Shown here piece by piece: positions 4,600-33,062 of a stretch of DNA of 64,000 nt. Under the pieces are notes generated by a model, which ran no database searches, was not told the DNA's origin, and saw only the letters and a list, made by a program, of their open reading frames with translations. The number at the start of each line of letters is the position of its first letter. Positions within the stretch are counted from its first letter, which is position 1. The stretch is from an uncultured Gemmatimonadota bacterium (GTDB lineage: Bacteria > JAAXHH01). A program made the position numbers and the translations under genes. The stretch covers positions 1,920,001-1,984,000 of the forward strand of contig OX638340.1 of assembly GCA_951812955.1 (NCBI GenBank), read 5' to 3'.

Positions 4600-5571
4600 A
4601 TGCAATATCTACTCACCGGCGGATATGGCTGTATCGGTTCGTGGATCGTGAAGAACCTGGTCGACGAAGGGCACGATGTCGCGATCTACGACCTGGTGGA
4701 ACATACCGCCCGCATGGCATTGATCATGGACGAGGAAGAGATCGCCCGGGTCCGGTTCATCGAGGGCGACATCGCCGACGGGACCCAATTCACGCGGGTG
4801 GTAGGTGAAACAGGCGCGTCCCGCATCATCCACCTGGCCGGACTGCAGGTGCCCGTGTGCAAGGCCGATCCCATCAAGGGCGCTACGGTCAACGTAATCG
4901 GCACCCTGAACGTCTTCGAAGCGGCCAGAACCCACGACGACATCGTCCGGCGTATCGTCTACGCGAGTTCCGCGGCCGTCTACGGAATGGAAGACGACTA
5001 CGACTCCGGACCGGTCGGGAACGACGCGGTGCTGAGGCCGGTCACCCACTACGGCGTATTCAAGCAGTGCAACGAAGCCAACGCGCGGGTGTACTTTCTC
5101 GATCACGGTATTTCAAGCTTCGGCCTGCGGCCGTGGACCGTGTACGGACCGGGCCGGGACTTCGGATTGACCTCCGATCCCACCAAGGCGGTCAAGGCGG
5201 CCCTGTTGAACCGGCCGTACGTGATTGGATACGGCGGGCGGAACAACATGCAGTACGTGAACGACACCGCCCGGACGTTCATCCGCTGCGCAGAGGCAGC
5301 CACCGAAGGCGCCGGGGCCTATAGCATACGTGGCGACGTCGTGACCATCGACGAGGTGATCGCGTCCATCGAGCGCGTCGTTCCCGATTCGAAGGGACTC
5401 ATCTCCCACCTGGACATGAACCTTCCCATCGCGCCGGACCTCGATGACCGCGCCATCCAGGAAGACGTGGGCGAGATCCCCTACACGCCGCTGGACGACG
5501 GGATCAGGGAGACCTGGGAAGTGTTCAGCCGCCACCAGGAGGCCGGAACGCTGAGCACGGACGACCTGTAG
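4600..5571 (+). CDS. NAD-dependent epimerase/dehydratase (SDR family)
   Basis: N-terminal Rossmann motif 'LLTGGYGCIGSW', 'YASSAAVYG' and YxxxK region. Confidence 0.75.
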   Translation: MQYLLTGGYGCIGSWIVKNLVDEGHDVAIYDLVEHTARMALIMDEEEIARVRFIEGDIADGTQFTRVVGETGASRIIHLAGLQVPVCKADPIKGATVNVIGTLNVFEAARTHDDIVRRIVYASSAAVYGMEDDYDSGPVGNDAVLRPVTHYGVFKQCNEANARVYFLDHGISSFGLRPWTVYGPGRDFGLTSDPTKAVKAALLNRPYVIGYGGRNNMQYVNDTARTFIRCAEAATEGAGAYSIRGDVVTIDEVIASIERVVPDSKGLISHLDMNLPIAPDLDDRAIQEDVGEIPYTPLDDGIRETWEVFSRHQEAGTLSTDDL

Positions 5572-5702
5572 GGCCGGTTATTCCGTACCCTGCCCGGTTG
5601 CGATCGCTAAACAATGGGCCACCAATCCCCGGTCAATCGGATCCTGATCAAGAGAATCCAGGTCCGTCGAACCATAACGAATAACATCAGGGCGAATAGG
5701 TC

Positions 5703-6497
5703 ATGACGCTGGAACAGCAGATTCAGGCCATGCAGCTCGATGGCTGGTGCGTGCTGGACAACATCATTCCCGGGGACCGGCTTGACGAGGTACGCGGCCG
5801 GGTCATCGCTTCGACGAACCGGCACCGGAATCCCGACGCACCCGAAAACATCGGCCACGTGAGCGGTTTCCTGAAATACGACCAGTCGCTGGCGCCCTGG
5901 CTCGCGGACCGGCGGCTCCTCTGCCTGGTCGAGGCGCTGCTCGGACACCATTTCCGCATCTCCTTCACCACGGCCACCATCAACGAGCCGGGGAACGACC
6001 GCGGTGGATGGCACGCGGACTGGCCCTTCAACCAGCGGAACGCCGGCTATGTGCCCGCGCCGTACCCGGACGCGGTCATGCACCTGACGACCATCTGGAT
6101 GCTTTCTTCCTTCACCGGCGATAACGGCGGCACCCTCATCGTCCCGGGCAGTCATCGAGACTCCAACAACCCGACCGGAAATAACGGGGTTCTGCCCGAA
6201 GCACCCCATTCGACCGAGTTGAACGTGACCGGCGAGGCCGGAAGCGTCCTCGTCATGGACAGCCGTTTGTGGCATTCGACTGCCGCGAACACCTCGAAGG
6301 ATCCCCGCGTCGCCGTTGTCGTCCGCTACGCGCCCTGGTGGCTGAACCTGAACGTGCTGAAACCCGGCTCGGAAGACCGCAGGATCCTGGTAGACGAGAC
6401 CGGCGGAACGGAGAACCTGGTTCCCGCCCTTCCCCGCGACGTGTATGACGGACTACCCGGCGAATTGAAGCCCCTCGTAAGTCACTGGGTGGAGTAG
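5703..6497 (+). CDS. phytanoyl-CoA dioxygenase (PhyH) family Fe(II)/2-oxoglutarate dioxygenase
   Basis: HxD...H facial triad context ('WHADWP', 'RLWHST'), typical PhyH length. Confidence 0.7.
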   Translation: MTLEQQIQAMQLDGWCVLDNIIPGDRLDEVRGRVIASTNRHRNPDAPENIGHVSGFLKYDQSLAPWLADRRLLCLVEALLGHHFRISFTTATINEPGNDRGGWHADWPFNQRNAGYVPAPYPDAVMHLTTIWMLSSFTGDNGGTLIVPGSHRDSNNPTGNNGVLPEAPHSTELNVTGEAGSVLVMDSRLWHSTAANTSKDPRVAVVVRYAPWWLNLNVLKPGSEDRRILVDETGGTENLVPALPRDVYDGLPGELKPLVSHWVE

Positions 6498-24797: not shown

Positions 24798-24996
24798 ATG
24801 GGACCCTTCGATCCTTTTCAAACGCCGATTAGATAGTACGGCTCTATCAGCGTACATATCCATCTGCTCCGCGCCTTACCTTTCAAACACATACGCTTGC
24901 CTAATCAGATTCAGATACGAGTAGAACAGAAGACGTATCAGGCTAATTCAAAATTAAACTTTGATTTGGCCTAATTTGATGTTTAACTTGCAGATT

Positions 24997-26181
24997 ATGA
25001 TTAAACGAGACCTTGCCGAGGAGTTGAAAAAGGCGGCACGGCGGTTCCCTTCAATCACGCTTACCGGACCACGGCAAAGTGGGAAGACCACACTGTGTCG
25101 AGCGCTATTTCCCCGTCTGCCCTACGCGACCCTTGAAGCGACGGACGTACGCTCTTTTGCAAGGGATGATCCCCGGGGGTTCCTGGCTCAGTTCGCCGGA
25201 GGCGCGATCATCGACGAGGTACAGCGCGTCCCCGACTTGCTGTCCTATTTGCAGGGCGTTATCGACGAAGAACCGGCGCCCGGCCGTTGGATTCTGACGG
25301 GTTCGCAGAACCTGTCTTTGCTCGAATCGGTCAGCCAATCGCTGGCCGGAAGGACCGCCATATACCATCTGCTTCCCTTGAGCCGATGTGAGATCCTGCG
25401 CTTTGACCGATATCCAGTCAGTCTCGAAGAGACGCTGTTCGCCGGGACGTACCCACGGGTTTTCGATCGCGGACTTGAACCGGCTGACTGGTTCAGGTCC
25501 TATGTCGCCACGTACGTCGAGCGTGACGTGCGCTCCACTAACAACGTAGGGGACCTGACGACGTTCCAACGATTCGTAGAGCTCTGCGCCGGGAGAACGG
25601 CGCAACTTGTCAACTATTCGTCACTGGCCAACGACTGCGGCATATCACAACCGACAGCCAAGGCGTGGCTCAGCATACTCGAGACCAGTTTTCTCGTTTT
25701 CCGCCTGCCGGCATTTCACTCGAATCTGCGAAAGCGACTTGTGAAGATGCCCAAACTGCACTTCTACGATACGGGTCTCGTCTGCTGGCTGCTGGGAATA
25801 CGCACGCCCGATCAACTGCGAAGCCATCCGTTGCGGGGTTCCGTCTTCGAAACCTGGGTTGTCTCGGAAATCACGAAACACAGACTCAACCGCGGCGAAT
25901 CGCCGAGGCTAAGTTTCTATCGCGATCGCAATGGCGTCGAAGTCGATCTCATCATCGAACAACCTTCTCATCGAACACTGGTCGAGGCAAAGTCGGGCGA
26001 AACGGTATCCGCGAATCTGTTCGCCGGAGCGCAGAGGGTCCAGAAACATATCACCCGGCCAACCCGCCCGGATTCCATAGCCGTGGTCTACGGCGGCGAC
26101 CAGTTCCAACATCGAACGCCGGGGTCTCTGGTACCCTGGAGTGGGCTTCACGAAGCGGATTTCTGGAAAACGGGGTCCTGA
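24997..26181 (+). CDS. AAA ATPase with C-terminal DUF4143 domain (COG1373-type)
   Basis: Walker A 'GPRQSGKTT', Walker B 'IIDEVQ'; C-terminal DUF4143-like region; start taken at MIKRDLAEEL. Confidence 0.7.
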   Translation: MIKRDLAEELKKAARRFPSITLTGPRQSGKTTLCRALFPRLPYATLEATDVRSFARDDPRGFLAQFAGGAIIDEVQRVPDLLSYLQGVIDEEPAPGRWILTGSQNLSLLESVSQSLAGRTAIYHLLPLSRCEILRFDRYPVSLEETLFAGTYPRVFDRGLEPADWFRSYVATYVERDVRSTNNVGDLTTFQRFVELCAGRTAQLVNYSSLANDCGISQPTAKAWLSILETSFLVFRLPAFHSNLRKRLVKMPKLHFYDTGLVCWLLGIRTPDQLRSHPLRGSVFETWVVSEITKHRLNRGESPRLSFYRDRNGVEVDLIIEQPSHRTLVEAKSGETVSANLFAGAQRVQKHITRPTRPDSIAVVYGGDQFQHRTPGSLVPWSGLHEADFWKTGS

Positions 26182-26228: not shown

Positions 26229-26762
26229 ATGCACCTGGCGGTCTGCGTCGCCATAGTGGTATCCTTACCTGCCGCCGCCCAGGAAACAGCGGAGAATAAC
26301 ACCATGTTCTGGTCGACGACGCTGAAGATGATCCGTGCGAAGTTCCCCGGGGTCGCCCAGCTTTCCACCGACAGCCTGCAGGTTTGGCTCGAAGCGGCGC
26401 CGGACCGGCCGGGCCGGGAAAGCCCGTTGCTTCTCGACGTGCGGGAAAAGGAAGAATACGAGGTCAGCCACCTGGAAGGCGCCCTGCTCGCCACCTCGGA
26501 AAAAGAAGCACTGCAGGCGCTGGAAGACGTTCCCCCGGACCAGCCCGTCGTGCTGTACTGTTCCGTGGGCTACCGCTCATCGGAAATGGCCGGCTATCTG
26601 GAGAAGAAGGGGTTCAGGAAAGTCTTCAACCTGGAGGGGTCGATCTTCGCCTGGGCGAACGAGGGACGGCCCGTATACCGGGGCGACGATCGCGCGCATG
26701 TCGTCCATCCCTACGACCGCGTATGGGGCAAGCTGCTGAAGAAGGCGCTTCGGGCTAGGTAA
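26229..26762 (+). CDS. secreted rhodanese-like domain protein
   Basis: Signal peptide 'MHLAVCVAIVVSLPAAAQE'; rhodanese active-site loop 'CSVGYRSS'; an alternative start at 26181 overlaps upstream stop (TGATG). Confidence 0.65.
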   Translation: MHLAVCVAIVVSLPAAAQETAENNTMFWSTTLKMIRAKFPGVAQLSTDSLQVWLEAAPDRPGRESPLLLDVREKEEYEVSHLEGALLATSEKEALQALEDVPPDQPVVLYCSVGYRSSEMAGYLEKKGFRKVFNLEGSIFAWANEGRPVYRGDDRAHVVHPYDRVWGKLLKKALRAR

Positions 26763-26814
26763 GCCGAGGCTATTCGATTTTGGCTGTTGCATTGCTCCCT
26801 TTGGCCTAGTCACG

Positions 26815-26898
26815 AGAAAGGTGGATTGTTGACACGGAAAGGATGGTTCGTTGAAGAGTGGTACATTGTTGAAGCGTAACAGACGAACCGGGGCGGTT
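26815..26898. repeat. copy A of an ~85-bp imperfect direct repeat (partner at 33894..33976)
   Basis: ggtggattgttgacacggaaaggatggttcgttgaagagtggtacattgttgaagcgtaacagacgaaccggggcgg versus copy B; roughly 85% identity by eye. Confidence 0.5.
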
Positions 26899-27150
26899 TC
26901 CCTAATCGATCGGCTCGGGTTCCCTGAACTGCGCTGACGTGACGAGCCAAGTCGCTAATTCAAAGGGTGATCCGTCTAAACGCGTTGACAGGATGGTTCT
27001 CAAATGCTTATAGTCCGGTAGAGAACCACTCAGTTGTATCTCGGCCTCATGCGGTCACGTATTGCGCAGTCCAAAACCAGTAAAATGGCCGTGCGAACTG
27101 CCGATCATGGTATGTTACAGCACACATGCGATGACAAGCGAACGATTAAC

Positions 27151-28098
27151 ATGAACCATTCGCCAACCGATACGTCCGCGCCGACAGGTACGCTCGCGCC
27201 AACCAGGCACGACCCTATCGAAGTTTCTCCGATACGGGCGGTGAACGTGGCTTTGGTCCCTCAACGAAGTCCGCTGCGGTACCCCGGTGGAAAGACGTGG
27301 CTGATTCCGCATATCCGGTTCTGGCTCGGCAAGATCGACCCTTCGCCTCGACTTCTGATCGAACCCTTCGCCGGCGGCGGGATCGTCTCCCTGACAGCGG
27401 TCATGGAAGGACTGGCCGAGCGGTGCATCATGGCGGAACTGGACCCCGACGTGGCTGCTTTCTGGCAGGCGGCGCTCAGGTCCGGACCTGAGCTCTGCGA
27501 CAAGGTGCTGCGCTTCCGACCAACGCGGGAAGCCGTCGAAGCCGTGGCGAGTATCAGACCGAGCGACCCGGTAGACCATGGTTTCCGCACGCTCGTGCTC
27601 AACCGAACGCGAAGGGGTGGCATTCTGGCTCCCGGCGCGGCGCTCAGTCGGGCGGGAGAAAACGGGAAGGGCGTCGCGTCCCGCTGGTATCCCGAAACCA
27701 TCGTAGGCCGTTTACGAGAGATCGCGGAACACGCCGACCGCATCGGCTTTCGCGAAACCGACGGCATCGGGTTGTTGGAGGAGTTGCTGGAAGCACGCGC
27801 GGGATCGGCGCTGGAGAACCCTTCCGACCCGGTGGTCTTCGCCGACCCTCCGTACACGGCCGGCGGCAAGCGCGCGGGAAGGCGGCTGTACACCCACAAC
27901 GAGATCGACCATCACCGGTTGTTCGAACTGCTTGCGGACAGCGGTGCGCGTTTCCTGATGACCTACGACAGGTCGTCCGAGATCGTGGCTCTCAGCCGGA
28001 AGCATGGATTCCACGCGGTACAGGTGACCATGAAGAACACCCATCACGCACGGATACCGGAACTGATCATCACCCCCGAACCGGTGTTCGTCAGTTGA
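27151..28098 (+). CDS. D12-class (Dam-like) N6-adenine DNA methyltransferase
   Basis: 'RYPGGK' motif I region and 'FADPPY' catalytic motif IV; start taken at MNHSPTDT (track ORF begins 27034). Confidence 0.8.
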   Translation: MNHSPTDTSAPTGTLAPTRHDPIEVSPIRAVNVALVPQRSPLRYPGGKTWLIPHIRFWLGKIDPSPRLLIEPFAGGGIVSLTAVMEGLAERCIMAELDPDVAAFWQAALRSGPELCDKVLRFRPTREAVEAVASIRPSDPVDHGFRTLVLNRTRRGGILAPGAALSRAGENGKGVASRWYPETIVGRLREIAEHADRIGFRETDGIGLLEELLEARAGSALENPSDPVVFADPPYTAGGKRAGRRLYTHNEIDHHRLFELLADSGARFLMTYDRSSEIVALSRKHGFHAVQVTMKNTHHARIPELIITPEPVFVS

Positions 28099-28973
28099 GT
28101 TCCCGTTACGGCATCGCGGAATGGTACGGGTTGCCATTCCCCTATCTCCCACCTGCTGCCCGCCATCATCTTGCAAAAAAAGCGTTACGGGAAGACCCCA
28201 ATGCTCCCGCGTGTCCGTTTCAAAACGGCCGGCCTCCATGCCGAAAGCGTGGCGGAATATGTTCCCTTGTTCGCTATGAACGGGATTCGGACGGAAGGCT
28301 TGGCTTGCCAAAAGGAAATCCGGTCATCGTTTGTCCGTCCCGATTCGAGGAAGAGCAACTGCTCGTTACCTGGTTGGCCGAGATCGTTGGCTTTGGACCG
28401 GACGAGGCGATGATCGCTCGCGAAGTAGCCTTCATGGAAGGAACCAGCACGGAGAGACCGGCTGGAAAAATCGATCTAGTCGTCGCCAGGGCCTCCAATG
28501 ACGATCTGAAATGGTTTGGACTGGAAATACAAGCCGTCTATTTCTCAGGTCAAGGCATGCCGTCCGAGTTCGCCAACCTACGGGACGACGATCATCGAAG
28601 ACCACCGTTTCCAAACGCGGTCCGTAGACCGGACTGGCGCTCTTCGAGCGCAAAGCGCCTCATGCCGCAGTTGCAAATCAAAGTGCCGACGCTACGCCGA
28701 TGGGGTTCGAAACTCGCCGTGTCGGTAGACCGGCCGTTTTTCGATTCGATTGGTGGTCCCAGTGCGCATCCCAGCCAGGACCTCAACGATGGGGACATCA
28801 TCTGGTTGATCCCGGAGTTGAAGCGGGAAGCCGGTGGTAACTTCAGGCTCACTCGGGGACATTGGGAAGTGCTCACGTTGGAGGATACGACCCGGAAACT
28901 CCTTGCGGCGGAAACGATCCGGCGGGAAGCGTTTGAGCAGGAGCTCCGCAGCAAACTCGAAGCGCTTCGGTGA
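28095..28973 (+). CDS. NotI-family type II restriction endonuclease
   Basis: N-terminal alignment to R.NotI ('IAEWYG' vs 'IAEFFG', 'CPF', 'GICSL' vs 'GVCVV', 'VCPSRF' vs 'VCPNRA', Cys4 metal site); TTG start overlapping MTase stop (TTGA). Confidence 0.6.
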   Translation: MSSRYGIAEWYGLPFPYLPPAARHHLAKKALREDPNAPACPFQNGRPPCRKRGGICSLVRYERDSDGRLGLPKGNPVIVCPSRFEEEQLLVTWLAEIVGFGPDEAMIAREVAFMEGTSTERPAGKIDLVVARASNDDLKWFGLEIQAVYFSGQGMPSEFANLRDDDHRRPPFPNAVRRPDWRSSSAKRLMPQLQIKVPTLRRWGSKLAVSVDRPFFDSIGGPSAHPSQDLNDGDIIWLIPELKREAGGNFRLTRGHWEVLTLEDTTRKLLAAETIRREAFEQELRSKLEALR

Positions 28974-29073
28974 GGCAGCGGACGACACCCGGGATACTGG
29001 GGTTCAAGATCGACGACTCGGTGTTAACCTTATGTCATCGGATGTGTAGTGCACCCCAAAATGGGACAAGTAG

Positions 29074-29950
29074 TTAAGCTACAGTTTTAACACGTGTCAT
29101 CCTCTGCTCGAACTCGACCGGCGGTCTGTAGTCCAGGGCCGAGTGCAAGCGCTTGCGATTGTATAGTTTGTCGATGAAGTAGCCGATGCGTGATCGGGCT
29201 TCTTCCAGGGATTCGTACTCGTAGAGATAGACCTCCTCGTATTTGAGCGTCCTGATGAAGCGCTCTGCCCTGGCGTTGTCATAGGGGTTGCCTTGCCGGC
29301 TCATGCTGATCCGTATGCCAGCGTTCTTGAGCGTGTCTACATAGGCTTTCGAGGCATACTGCACGCTCCGGTCGGAGTGATGCACAAGCCCTTTCTGCGC
29401 TGGTCTGGCGGCCAGGGCGCTGTCGAGGGCGTTCAGGGCCAAGGTGGCATCGAGGGTTCGATCCAAGGCCCAGCCGATGCATCTTCTGCTGCAGGCGTCA
29501 AGGATCACCGCCAGATAGACCCATTCGCGAGCCAGCCTTATGTAGGTGATGTCGGATACCCAGAGCTGGTTGACATTGGTTACGTTCAGTTCCGGGACCA
29601 GGTTGGCGTAAACGGCGCGGTCGTGATTCGAGTCGGTGGTCGCTACGAAGGCTCGGCGCCGCAGGGCAAGCAGGTTGTCCTCGCGCATGAGACGCAGAAC
29701 GCGCTTGTGGTTCACATGGTATCCCATACGCTTTAGCGCGCGGGTCATGGGACGGTAACCGTAGGCGGGTCAGGAAAGGGCGAGCCTGTGGATCTGATCC
29801 CGCAGTGCAAGGTCCGGATCCGTACGACCACGACGACCGCGGTAGTAGCTGGATCGACCGATCGAGAGCGTCCTGCACAGACGCTTGACCACGGCGCGGT
29901 CGGTGGACGCCTTTGATTGAGCGACCAGGCAGATCATGAGCTTCCTCCAT
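29074..29950 (-). pseudogene. IS3 transposase orfB (integrase core) interrupted by an in-frame TGA
   Basis: 'LCRTLSIGRSSYYRGRR...IHRLALS*PAYGYRPMTRALKRMGYHVNHKRVLRLMRE...DITYI...DRSVQYAS...YNRKRLHSALDYRPP' DDE/rve motifs. Confidence 0.7.
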
Positions 29951-30259
29951 TGCCTCGGGCTGAGCGTGGGATCTCCTCGAGCCGACTCAAGACTTTTTTT
30001 AACACATCGTTCTCCATGGTCAGTTGACCGACCTTGCGCTCAAGGGCCTAGGGTCCGGGCCTCGTCACTTACCGCCTTGCCATCCATTACCGGGGAAAGC
30101 GCGGTCGCCCTGGCGGCGAAGCTGCTGACGCCACCTGTGGATCAGCGTAGGATGGACCTGGTGTTCTCGGGCCAACTGGCTGATGGATTTGCCCGAATCG
30201 GCTTCCTGGAGAACCTGGAGCTTGAACTCGCGGGTGAACTGACGGCGTTTCAGGGACAT
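29951..30259 (-). pseudogene. IS3 transposase orfA (HTH), frameshifted
   Basis: 'MSLKRRQFTREFKLQVLQEADSGKSISQLAREHQVHPTLIHRWRQQL' then stop; leucine-zipper part 'ALERKVGQLTMENDVLKKVLSRLEE' continues in another frame. Confidence 0.65.
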
Positions 30260-30328: not shown

Positions 30329-31252
30329 TTACAGAGGAAGTTTGTTGTAGCTGATTCCGAATCCAAACCGCACATCGTAAGAGCTCTGAGTCGGGACGGT
30401 GCTAAGCTCTTCGATATTCGAAGTATCGATCTTAGAGCCGCCCTGCATCGTCGGACCTTGACTTATATGAGCACCAAAGGTGAGCCAAGTAGACTTTCCG
30501 ATCTCCAAACTTGGACCGAAGATATATTCTAGAACCGTTCCCGGTTCGCCTCCGATTTCTGCGAGCGTTCCTAAACTCAAGTTTACATCCCAACCATTAC
30601 CAATCCGCAAAACGTGCGAATTAACAACGGTTCCTGGCATCACTTGGAAATCCGACCAACTTGTGAAGAAACCGACGCTAATAGAGAACGGGGACTCGCA
30701 AACGAACGTGACCAAAGGATACTCATTCTTCTTGGCGGCTTCGTTTTTCTCCCCGTCCTCATTATCTTGCGGGAACAAGTCGAAAACCACCAAGGTCCAC
30801 TCTTCTTTTCGAGATTTGAAGTCGCACTCGATCGACTGTGAGATTTCAGACTTGGTGCCCTTGTGCATCTCAATAGATGATTGAAGGTATCTTTTTAATG
30901 CCGTAATCTGATCGTTCGCTTGACTCCACTTACTTTCTGCTAATTCAATCTCTACAAGAGCACTGCCAGTCTGCGTCAACGCACTGTCAATCTGTGCCAA
31001 CAAAACACTGTCAGGTAATTGCAATGCACCGCCAAGTGCCTCCCTGTTGTTCCTATTTGCCAAGTTCATCAAACGATCCTGAAGGGAAACTTGGCGATCC
31101 TGAAGGGAAGATATCTGCGGCCAGTTTCCCTTCTCAATTTCACCTATGAGTTGACCGCTTCTGTATATCAGTGTGTCGCTTGGAAAATACATATTACTAA
31201 TATCAATGAAATCGCGCAGTTTCTTAATCTGATTAGAGGTTACTTGACGCAA
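30329..31252 (-). CDS. hypothetical protein (AT-rich foreign gene; coiled-coil N-terminus, beta-rich C-terminus)
   Basis: 307-aa ORF with markedly lower GC than surroundings; no recognisable motifs. Confidence 0.45.
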   Translation of the reverse strand: MRQVTSNQIKKLRDFIDISNMYFPSDTLIYRSGQLIGEIEKGNWPQISSLQDRQVSLQDRLMNLANRNNREALGGALQLPDSVLLAQIDSALTQTGSALVEIELAESKWSQANDQITALKRYLQSSIEMHKGTKSEISQSIECDFKSRKEEWTLVVFDLFPQDNEDGEKNEAAKKNEYPLVTFVCESPFSISVGFFTSWSDFQVMPGTVVNSHVLRIGNGWDVNLSLGTLAEIGGEPGTVLEYIFGPSLEIGKSTWLTFGAHISQGPTMQGGSKIDTSNIEELSTVPTQSSYDVRFGFGISYNKLPL

Positions 31253-31767
31253 GCTGTTAGCCTGGTTTTGTGCAACGTCGGTTTCTTAAGCAAAGAGGCG
31301 GTTTCTCTAAATAAAGAATCGATGCCTTCAGGCGGTGTGCCAACGTTGCTTATATTAAACGAGGAATTGACGTTTTGAAACACACTATCAGCCTGGATTT
31401 CATTCGTCATCTCCCATTGGCATAGCTGGCGCAGGTAGTTGAGCGTATTGGGGGCGTCAAGCGCCTCAACCTGACGGCGGATTTCGTATCTATAGCGAAC
31501 TAAGTTAAGATCCACTACTGTGATGGATGCTTTGTAATGAACTTGCACTTCACCATAGGAACCTTGGGGCCTTTGAAGGGAGTAAGTCAAATCTTGTCCG
31601 GCAGCTACCGGCATATCTGATCCGACAAACAACAGCACACCGGCGATGTGGAAAAGAGCATTTAATAGACGATACTTCGTCCGAGATCCCCGTGGTGGTC
31701 CTAAGGAAACGAGCGGTATTCCTGAAATGACGGTTCTCACGTTTCGGTTCTCCGACATCCCTTTCAT
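31240..31767 (-). CDS. hypothetical protein with N-terminal signal-anchor
   Basis: 175-aa ORF overlapping downstream gene by 13 nt (operon); hydrophobic segment 'LLNALFHIAGVLLFVGS'. Confidence 0.4.
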   Translation of the reverse strand: MKGMSENRNVRTVISGIPLVSLGPPRGSRTKYRLLNALFHIAGVLLFVGSDMPVAAGQDLTYSLQRPQGSYGEVQVHYKASITVVDLNLVRYRYEIRRQVEALDAPNTLNYLRQLCQWEMTNEIQADSVFQNVNSSFNISNVGTPPEGIDSLFRETASLLKKPTLHKTRLTACVK

Positions 31768-31849
31768 AAACGACCTCCTGTAATTGGCCTCAAAAACTGG
31801 ATCTCGTCAAAGGTGGATGTACCATAGCAGACAACCCGGCACGCGGAAG

Positions 31850-32245
31850 GCCGATGGTATGTTGAAAAGACGCAGACGGGCCCAGCGTCCGGTGCAAGTT
31901 TCAGGTGGCTCTCGAAGCGCTCATGGGACTGAAGGCCATCAGCCAGTTGGCCGCGGAGCATCAAGGCCAACACAATCAGATCACCAAATGGAAACGCCGG
32001 TTACTCGATGAGGGCGATCAAGTTTTTAACCACAGGCGACCGGTCCCGATGGCGTTCAAGATGCCATAGTGGACCAGCTCTACGAGCAGATCGGACGCTT
32101 GAAGATGGAACTGAAGTGGCTAAAAAAGTTGCCCTTTCAACGCGTCACAGACGCCTGATGATCGATGTCGATACGCCTCGGCTTTCCATACGCTGTCATT
32201 GCGAACTGATGGATCTTTCAAGGTCCAGCTTCTACCAAGAATAGG
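31850..32245 (+). mobile_element. fragment of a second IS3-family element (orfA remnant plus first ~20 codons of orfB), frameshifted and truncated
   Basis: Frames give 'KFQVALEALMGLKAISQLAAEHQGQHNQITKWKRRLLDEGDQVF', 'VDQLYEQIGRLKMELKWLKKL', 'LSIRCHCELMDLSRSSFYQE*'. Confidence 0.55.
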
Positions 32246-32273
32246 ACTTGCATAACATTAGCATGTCGGGCAG

Positions 32274-33062
32274 TTACAATGTATTACGGATCCTGTTCGC
32301 TATACACTTGAATACCCATTCATTAGGATGGAGTTCATCATCCCAGAAATTCTTGTAATGACCTGGACTGTTACTAAGAAGATCACGAACATCTACGTAA
32401 CGTACATAGTCATAGTTTACTGCCAACAACTGAAGCATTTCGTTGAACTTGTCTATCAGTACCTCCATCACCCTGGTAGCAAACCAAAGGTCATCGTGAC
32501 TTTTTTTAATATTGTATCCCTTTTTCCTGAATACCGGATAGAGCCAAGGCCCCTTTACCTTTATCCAAAACTTGAACTTGCGTCCATCGGGAACTGGGTG
32601 GCCATATCCATGGACGATTATCGGAATATCACTTTGGGGCCAATACACTAAACAAGCTCCCCTTATAACTTCGATAAGTTGCGAGTAGTAAGTACGAAGA
32701 TAGCAGAATATCATTTTCTGGACTTCATTCGTGTCTAACGCACTATTTACATCTGATGCTGATGTACGATCGTTAAGCATTTTCTTCAGCTTCTTTGTCA
32801 GATCATTGCCGCCACCGGAGAGGAGGACTGCTTTGGGTTTGCTATTGAGTTTGTGTAGTTTTTGTAGTTTTTTAAGAAGGGCTTTGTGTTGTTCTTGTGC
32901 ATAGGCCATATCCTTGAGCGTGTCACCGTGTTTAGCTACACTTCTCACTTTGTATCCCATGCCCCTTAACCCCTCTAATACATCATCAGCTTGATTTGTA
33001 GAGTTTGGCAAATCGAACCATGAATCACCCTCCGCTACCAAGATTGGTTTTTGATTTGGCAT
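32274..33062 (-). CDS. SGNH/GDSL-family hydrolase (AT-rich foreign gene)
   Basis: Block I 'VAEGDSWFD', block III 'GGGND', block V 'DELHPN'; low GC. Confidence 0.55.
   Translation of the reverse strand: MPNQKPILVAEGDSWFDLPNSTNQADDVLEGLRGMGYKVRSVAKHGDTLKDMAYAQEQHKALLKKLQKLHKLNSKPKAVLLSGGGNDLTKKLKKMLNDRTSASDVNSALDTNEVQKMIFCYLRTYYSQLIEVIRGACLVYWPQSDIPIIVHGYGHPVPDGRKFKFWIKVKGPWLYPVFRKKGYNIKKSHDDLWFATRVMEVLIDKFNEMLQLLAVNYDYVRYVDVRDLLSNSPGHYKNFWDDELHPNEWVFKCIANRIRNTL

Follow-up and report, generated by a model that had tools for sequence, protein, structure and literature searches.

A NotI-fold nuclease paired with an alpha-class amino-methyltransferase in an uncultured Gemmatimonadota bacterium: a very probable mobile Type IIP restriction–modification cassette

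Introduction

Among the known restriction–modification systems closest to the one described here is that of Nocardia otitidiscaviarum, in which the gene of the nuclease R.NotI (PDB 3BVQ and 3C25) is preceded on one strand by that of the amino-methyltransferase M.NotI. We have analysed a gene pair of comparable layout in a stretch of 64,000 nucleotides (hereafter the window, numbered from its first letter) from the genome of an uncultured Gemmatimonadota bacterium (GCA_951812955.1, contig OX638340.1, positions 1,920,001 to 1,984,000); the pair lies at positions 27151 to 28973 and encodes a putative methyltransferase followed by a nuclease of 292 amino acids. We propose that the two genes very probably form a Type IIP restriction–modification cassette, about 2 kb long, that is self-contained and moves horizontally. 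The nuclease shares with R.NotI the N-terminal motif IAE(W/F)(Y/F)G, the order of its four cysteines, the residues D...E-I-Q and a KR...Q...K helix motif. The partners differ, in that the methylase of the NotI system belongs to PF01555 (beta class, N6/N4) and that of the window to PF02086 (alpha class). Since GCGGCCGC, the NotI site, contains no adenine, the PF01555 methylase preceding the NotI gene must act on cytosine.

For the methylase, the closest characterised relatives are M.CbeI from C. bescii and DmtB from Anabaena. M.CbeI, which carries a DPPY motif, is an N4-cytosine methyltransferase of the alpha class (PMC8616854); it was annotated as a D12 N6-adenine methylase, yet it makes N4-methylcytosine (m4C) in GGCC, and so does DmtB, which is 57% identical to it (PMC3425538). 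Both resemble the window methylase in an N-terminal RYPGGK motif, in FxGxG and in DPPY, but the nucleases they are paired with are HaeIII-like and not of the NotI fold, and the N4-cytosine activity is theirs, the window enzyme being 25–27% identical to them. A third system, PD-lambda-5 from E. coli (Vassallo et al. 2022), is a compacted prophage system that combines restriction–modification with abortive infection (PMC9519451). The window methylase matches its component PD-Lambda-5_B over the full length, but the window nuclease has no match to component A, so the locus resembles PD-lambda-5 in one of its two components.

Several RefSeq plasmids carry a gene annotated as "NotI family restriction endonuclease" adjoining one annotated as "DNA adenine methylase", namely pEST4011, NC_019378 from B. 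cepacia, three Variovorax plasmids, two Aeromonas plasmids (4 kb and 8.5 kb) and pTbrSNM4-1c from Thermus brockianus. Pairs of this kind were thus known before, and we regard the window cassette as one more example of a combination that RefSeq already annotates but that, so far as we found, nobody has characterised; our literature search returned no paper on a NotI family restriction endonuclease, on a NotI-like enzyme with a methyltransferase or on a characterised PF12183 member. In the plasmid pairs the same two families are adjacent, with nucleases 36–38% and methylases 42–45% identical to the products of the window genes. They differ from the window pair in their nuclease-then-methylase order, in being plasmid-borne in Proteobacteria and Thermus whereas the window cassette is chromosomal and belongs with uncultured lineages, and in a divergence from the window genes large enough that specificity may differ.

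Results and Discussion

Organization and conservation of the gene pair

The cassette consists of two overlapping open reading frames (ORFs):

27151 (ATG) to 28098 (TGA), + strand: methyltransferase gene, 315 amino acids, PF02086 family, M.CbeI / PD-lambda-5_B subfamily
28095 (TTG) to 28973 (TGA), + strand: restriction endonuclease gene, NotI fold, 292 amino acids
28095 to 28098, + strand: TTGA overlap of 4 bp, formed by the nuclease start TTG and the methylase stop TGA

An earlier reading of the window, made from the letters alone and referred to below as the sequence-only reading, had described the genes as coupled through a TTG start inside a TTGA stop, with the methylase first and the nuclease second. 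Both statements agree with the layout given above, and comparison with related genomes bears out the gene order. Pair conservation, overlap and homology bounds were judged on the best 80 of 546 genomes with relatives. In all 80 loci a methylase homologue (57–87% identity) ends no more than a few bases from where the nuclease starts, the two genes being adjacent and in the same order as in the window, and most of these junctions have an NTGA overlap (ATGA, TTGA or GTGA). This constancy speaks for a working restriction–modification pair, as do the intactness of both ORFs in the window and the genuine NotI system, which likewise has an amino-methyltransferase partner and the methylase-then-nuclease order. 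DNA homology to the window is limited to 27210–28975 in 79 loci and to 26978–28976 in the closest relative (L001, 88% DNA identity), from which it follows that the mobile unit is just a promoter and two genes.

The start of the methylase gene could be placed at either of two codons. An in-frame TTG at 27034 would lengthen the protein to 354 amino acids and is the start in the public gene call (P0257). In L001, indels of 3 nt and 1 nt fall between the promoter block and the methylase ATG, and the ATG with all sequence 3' of it is aligned in frame with the window; because of these upstream indels ATG 27151 is preferred over TTG 27034. Alignment with 35 methylase homologues, together with the L001 comparison, points to ATG 27151 as the true start.

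Upstream of the methylase gene lie a putative promoter and a short palindrome:

26985 to 27014, + strand: sigma-70-like promoter with TTGACA, an 18-nt spacer and TATAGT, matching at 11 of 12 positions; function predicted
26979 to 26986: 8-bp palindrome AACGCGTT, overlapping the -35 hexamer of the cassette promoter

The promoter is the sole promoter-like site in 26700–29150, and the block 26978–27017 is nearly identical between the window and L001. Among the related loci, AACGCGTT recurs only in L001 (at about 4886–4893), and it may be an operator or a chance feature. A shared operator or recognition site in the promoter was considered and rejected, because promoter and palindrome are common to the window and L001 only and are lacking in the other 79 loci. 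The sequence-only reading had also noted that a controller gene (C-protein) is missing; indeed no + strand ORF of at least 50 amino acids exists in 26763–27150, and the homology between L001 and the window, which begins only at 26978, leaves no room for such a gene in the cassette.

A short relative of NotI

The nuclease belongs to the NotI-fold restriction endonucleases with a Cys4 site and a D...E-x-Q active site. The regions that carry these features are as follows:

28212 to 28334, + strand: Cys4 metal-site region, C40/C49/C56/C80, aligned with NotI C42/C55/C65/C81; predicted metal site
28473 to 28532, + strand: variant PD-(D/E)XK active site, D127 and E144-I-Q146, aligned with NotI D160 and E182-I-Q184
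28629 to 28682, + strand: conserved helix motif P179-D180...K187-R188...Q192...K196, within a predicted helix at residues 184–202

The Pfam model PF12183 ("NotI") matches the nuclease with E = 1.3e-41 and 143 bits against a cutoff of 22, over residues 37–248 (profile positions 14–233 of 238). Direct comparison with R.NotI, whose query sequence was checked against PDB 3BVQ (383 of 383 residues), is weak in pairwise BLASTP (24% identity over 88 amino acids, E = 0.02). When the nuclease family was aligned with 33 true NotI homologues by hhalign, a probability of 80% and E = 1.4e-5 were obtained over 220 columns. In the alignment IAEWYG of the nuclease stands opposite IAEFFG of NotI, and the four cysteines fall on one another, so the N-terminal likeness to R.NotI claimed in the sequence-only reading is real, if weak in sequence, and its NotI-fold assignment is borne out. 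Searching the PDB with the nuclease (phmmer) and with a profile of 39 family sequences gave nothing at E <= 10. The nuclease has a canonical Type II fold, for which R.NotI gives a better superposition than any other PD-(D/E)XK enzyme, with an identity of 17% in the structural alignment.

With 292 amino acids against the 383 of R.NotI, the nuclease is 91 amino acids shorter, close to the 90 estimated at first. What is missing is an insertion of about 30 amino acids before the catalytic Asp and the C-terminal region past residue 290 or so; the hhalign alignment accordingly stops near NotI residue 291, and the full 383-residue NotI architecture is not found in the nuclease. Within the shared core, the four cysteines, D127, E144, Q146 and the helix motif are invariant in 39 nuclease family members (61–87% identity), which argues for purifying selection on an active enzyme. 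The aligned NotI positions, including the four cysteines, D160/E182-x-Q184 and the helix motif, are likewise invariant in the 33 NotI homologues, and MAFFT places the helix motif of the nuclease opposite P229-N230...K236-R237...Q241...K245 of NotI. This motif may serve catalysis or DNA contact. The metal held by NotI is reportedly iron, a finding ascribed to Lambert et al. 2008.

The meaning of the Pfam match deserves comment. R.NotI itself has no match to PF12183 at E <= 1, and the model appears in the precomputed annotation of none of the 120 closest NotI homologues (P0137–P0256); at present the model thus stands for the short clade (about 290 amino acids) and not for NotI. A PF12183 match is thus evidence of a NotI fold, not of NotI-like specificity.

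An alpha-class methyltransferase close to M.CbeI

The methylase carries the two principal motifs of its class:

27361 to 27381, + strand: motif I (S-adenosylmethionine binding), EPFAGGG, residues 71–77, aligned with FxGxG of M.CbeI and Dam
27844 to 27855, + strand: motif IV (catalytic), DPPY, residues 232–235, aligned with DPPY of M.CbeI (Asp179–Tyr182)

It matches PF02086 ("MethyltransfD12") with E = 8.6e-11 and 42.5 bits against a cutoff of 22, so that both profiles proposed as a check by the sequence-only reading, PF12183 and PF02086, score above their cutoffs. E71, P72, F73, G75, G76 and DPPY are invariant in 35–36 methylase homologues, and the layout is that of the alpha class, with motif I followed by the target recognition domain and then motif IV. 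The designation of the enzyme as a D12-class methylase with DPPY was thus correct. To call it Dam-like was too strong: the Dam family model TIGR00571 gives 32 bits against a cutoff of 114.85, and PRK10904 gives 15.6 bits against 441. Among the PADLOC models the best match is PD-Lambda-5_B (E = 9e-42), followed by MTase_II (E = 1e-27).

Comparison with enzymes of known structure places the methylase closer to M.CbeI than to any N6-methyladenine (m6A) enzyme of known structure. M.CbeI (PDB 7M6B) is the best relative in phmmer (E = 7e-8), is matched by the methylase family profile over its full length (E = 4.2e-15) and is the top match in Foldseek (2.7e-13), the fold being nearest M.CbeI, Dam and DpnM. 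The corresponding E values with Dam from E. coli are about 0.4 in phmmer, 4e-4 with the profile, over the N-terminal third only, and 2e-10 in Foldseek. The identity to M.CbeI is 24.7%. A "DNA adenine methylase" from a Nostoc plasmid shares 55% identity with M.CbeI and 27% with the window methylase; the genes of this methylase and of a HaeIII-family (GGCC) nuclease, whose site contains no adenine, overlap.

Methylases of the same clade, 42–45% identical to the window enzyme, also occur where there is no NotI-family nuclease, on Bdellovibrio pBdHM1 (L087, 4052–4936) and on a Deinococcus plasmid (L088, 3974–4915). Both lie in phage-like surroundings beside PHP/PolIII-alpha-like and Lar-like genes and are probably orphan or anti-restriction methylases.

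Proposed mode of action

In the scheme that we propose, a single promoter would drive transcription of the methylase gene, and the nuclease would be translated by ribosomes terminating at the overlapping TTGA. Such coupling would tie nuclease output to methylase output, probably at a lower level, and could stand in for a C-protein. The methylase is predicted to act as an alpha-class amino-methyltransferase that depends on S-adenosylmethionine and transfers a methyl group to an exocyclic amino group in each strand of a short palindrome. The nuclease, presumably a homodimer as NotI is, with its Cys4 metal site in a structural role, would cut sites left unmethylated, probably leaving 5' overhangs as NotI does.

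Distribution of the cassette

Homologues of the nuclease form 2320 clusters in a large protein collection, and relatives of the cassette occur in 546 species-representative genomes. The 80 best loci are 59–94% identical at the protein level and represent at least eight phyla. Judged by names, they include Latescibacterota, Chloroflexota (Dehalococcoidia, Anaerolineae and Caldilineaceae), Acidimicrobiia and Acidobacteriota, as well as Alpha- and Gammaproteobacteria, Thermodesulfobacteriota, Binatia and Rhodothermales, and almost all come from uncultured genomes. Neither the phage collection nor the E. coli genomes that we searched contain homologues. Names such as Poriferisocius, Porisulfidus and Latescibacterota hint at symbionts of sponges or marine invertebrates. 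The pattern suggests intense exchange of the cassette within one kind of community, the habitat being read from names only.

Exchange of the partner methylase

Two members of the nuclease family, from Paraburkholderia pBN5 and from Sedimenticola, have a C5-cytosine methylase as partner, accompanied in pBN5 by a Vsr gene. The Aeromonas nuclease shares 84.7% identity with the pBN5 enzyme, and the pEST4011 nuclease 81.7%. At an identity of 82–85% a shared recognition site is almost certain among pBN5, Aeromonas and pEST4011, and the same site can therefore be protected either by cytosine-C5 methylation (pBN5, L094 2968–5326, C5 and Vsr) or by a D12-type methylase (Aeromonas, L085 1746–3885; pEST4011, L096 2980–5128). 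The partner methylase is thus exchangeable within this nuclease family. The plasmid nucleases with a C5 partner share only 38–40% identity with the window nuclease.

The methylated base and the recognition site

From the D12 class and the DPPY motif the sequence-only reading had concluded that the methylase makes m6A and that the pair must recognise an adenine-containing site. This reasoning is unsupported: M.CbeI has DPPY and makes m4C, as DmtB does, in GGCC, so that "D12 with DPPY" does not identify the methylated base, and with cytosine-N4 methylases as the nearest studied relatives the site is not deducible from the methylase family. An adenine-containing site is possible but not required.

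We looked for avoidance of the site in 1.04 Mb of host DNA, made up of the 80 loci and the window, by comparing observed with expected counts (O/E) under a maximal-order Markov model for all 4-, 5- and 6-mers and for palindromic 8-mers. Nearly every 6-bp palindrome was depleted (O/E 0.42–0.98) and no single outlier emerged. The most consistent depletion was that of CGATCG (z = -10.4) and of CGGCCG (z = -10.0; below expectation in 76 of 81 loci), and GCGGCCGC was not depleted (O/E 0.94). Because the sample holds no cassette-free control genomes, these word statistics are uninterpretable, and this route to the site was abandoned. Two other routes were likewise given up. The C5 methylases found as partners are closer to the catalytic domain of DNMT1 than to M.HaeIII or M.HhaI, so nothing transfers from them; and of the more distant plasmid homologues of the methylase, those that have no NotI- or HaeIII-family nuclease as partner are orphans or lie beside genes for hypothetical proteins.

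Two readings of the methylated base deserve serious weight. Most characterised PF02086 enzymes are m6A methylases, and it stands close to an even chance that the window methylase is a Dam-like N6-adenine enzyme and that the pair targets an adenine-containing palindrome unrelated to GCGGCCGC. Membership of PF02086, the alpha-class motif order and DPPY all fit such an enzyme, and Foldseek places Dam, DpnM and T4 Dam among its clear structural neighbours (E = 2e-10 to 1e-6). An identity of a mere 25–27% to the m4C enzymes leaves room for a different base specificity, the conserved helix motif of the nuclease departs from that of NotI at several positions, and hexamers with a GATC core are among the more depleted host words, which is weak evidence. 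Against these points stand the closest characterised relatives, M.CbeI and DmtB, which carry the same DPPY and make m4C, and the wide miss of the Dam family model (32 bits against 114.85). Near-identical nucleases of the family are protected by a C5-cytosine methylase, NotI-type nucleases are naturally paired with an amino-methylase that must act on cytosine, and nothing in the sequence demands adenine.

Alternatively, the methylase may be an alpha-class N4-cytosine enzyme like M.CbeI and DmtB, acting on a site of G and C only, possibly with a GGCC core (CGGCCG, GGGCCC or GCGGCCGC), which would make the cassette a compact functional relative of NotI/EagI-type systems; we consider this a substantial possibility, if short of an even one. 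Both genes point to GGCC independently, each through a remote likeness (25–27% and 17% identity): the closest characterised relatives of the methylase methylate GGCC at N4, and the sole solved relative of the nuclease cuts GC^GGCCGC. The gene of one member of the methylase clade, that of the Nostoc plasmid, overlaps a gene for a HaeIII-family nuclease; in the genuine NotI system an amino-methylase acts on a site that lacks A; and nucleases of the family that are 82–85% identical to each other accept a C5-cytosine methylase with Vsr. GGCC and the four NGGCCN palindromes are also among the more depleted words in the host DNA, but with nearly all 6-bp palindromes depleted and no control set the word statistics do not discriminate, and GCGGCCGC itself is not depleted. 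Further points against a G+C-only site are that an identity of 25–27% to M.CbeI and DmtB is too low for transfer of base or site specificity, that the nuclease shares 17% identity with NotI and has no counterpart of its C-terminal 90 amino acids, and that the C5-partnered plasmid nucleases, at 38–40% identity to the window nuclease, may differ from it in specificity.

Strength of the cassette interpretation

Several observations weigh against a functional Type IIP cassette. The nuclease matches no NCBIfam or PADLOC model, and the site-avoidance analysis singled out no word. The homodimer, the palindromic site and the overhang type would follow from analogy with NotI, at an identity of 17% in the structural alignment. 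In three related loci, L020 (about 5071–6001), L033 (about 5126–6001) and L071 (about 5094–5998), the methylase frame appears broken, as judged from split tblastn matches or an early stop, and the nuclease ORF has its full length; either these are errors of long-read assembly or the methylase has truly been lost and the nuclease retained, a sign that hosts can sometimes survive the nuclease in the absence of its partner. We found no biochemical or methylome data on any member of the cassette family.

It is very improbable that the locus is no working classical restriction–modification system at all, being instead a decaying remnant beside an insertion sequence (IS) element or a PD-lambda-5-type module of restriction and abortive infection whose methylase plays a different effector role, as might be suggested by the best PADLOC match of the methylase (PD-Lambda-5_B), by an IS3-family transposase 100 bp downstream and by the three broken methylase frames beside intact nucleases, for both ORFs are intact with all catalytic and metal-ligand residues conserved, the nuclease has a canonical Type II fold and matches neither PD-Lambda-5_A nor any other PADLOC model, and the two-gene unit is kept in 80 of 80 loci.

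Genomic surroundings

The cassette sits between a gene for a DUF4143/AAA_14 ATPase (24961–26181, + strand) and the transposase. The ATPase gene is not conserved beside the cassette in other loci. The transposase has two parts:

29074 to 30259, - strand: IS3-family transposase, with orfB (rve/HTH_21) at 29074–29748 and orfA (HTH_Tnp_1) at 30065–30259

Some 300 bp separate orfA from orfB, which suggests that this IS3 copy is disrupted or unusual. Beyond it, the stretch 30329–33000 has a G+C content of 42–47% against about 59% for the window and probably represents foreign DNA adjoining the IS element. Two overlapping - strand ORFs in it, of 307 amino acids (30329–31252) and 175 amino acids (31240–31767), have no Pfam match.

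Significance

Given its spread across at least eight phyla of uncultured bacteria, at 60–75% identity, the 2-kb cassette is a successful mobile defence unit. More tentatively, and with rather more doubt than confidence, we suggest that the methylases of the short NotI-fold nucleases constitute a second large and widespread clade of alpha-class DPPY N4-cytosine methyltransferases, and the cassette a compact system with a GGCC core (EagI/NotI-like) that has spread through many phyla of uncultured and seemingly host-associated bacteria. Such methylases are uniformly annotated as "DNA adenine methylase" today; if the suggestion is true, hundreds of database annotations and the m6A-based inferences drawn from them would be wrong, and the nuclease of 292 amino acids would represent a minimal NotI-type scaffold of possible use in engineering. 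Determination of the site could yield a new or more compact rare-cutter, and the methylation motif of the cassette, once known, may serve as a marker in long-read metagenomes. The analysis is of value chiefly for the correction concerning the methylated base and for the prospect, open to test, that a large clade of alpha-class m4C methyltransferases is mis-annotated.

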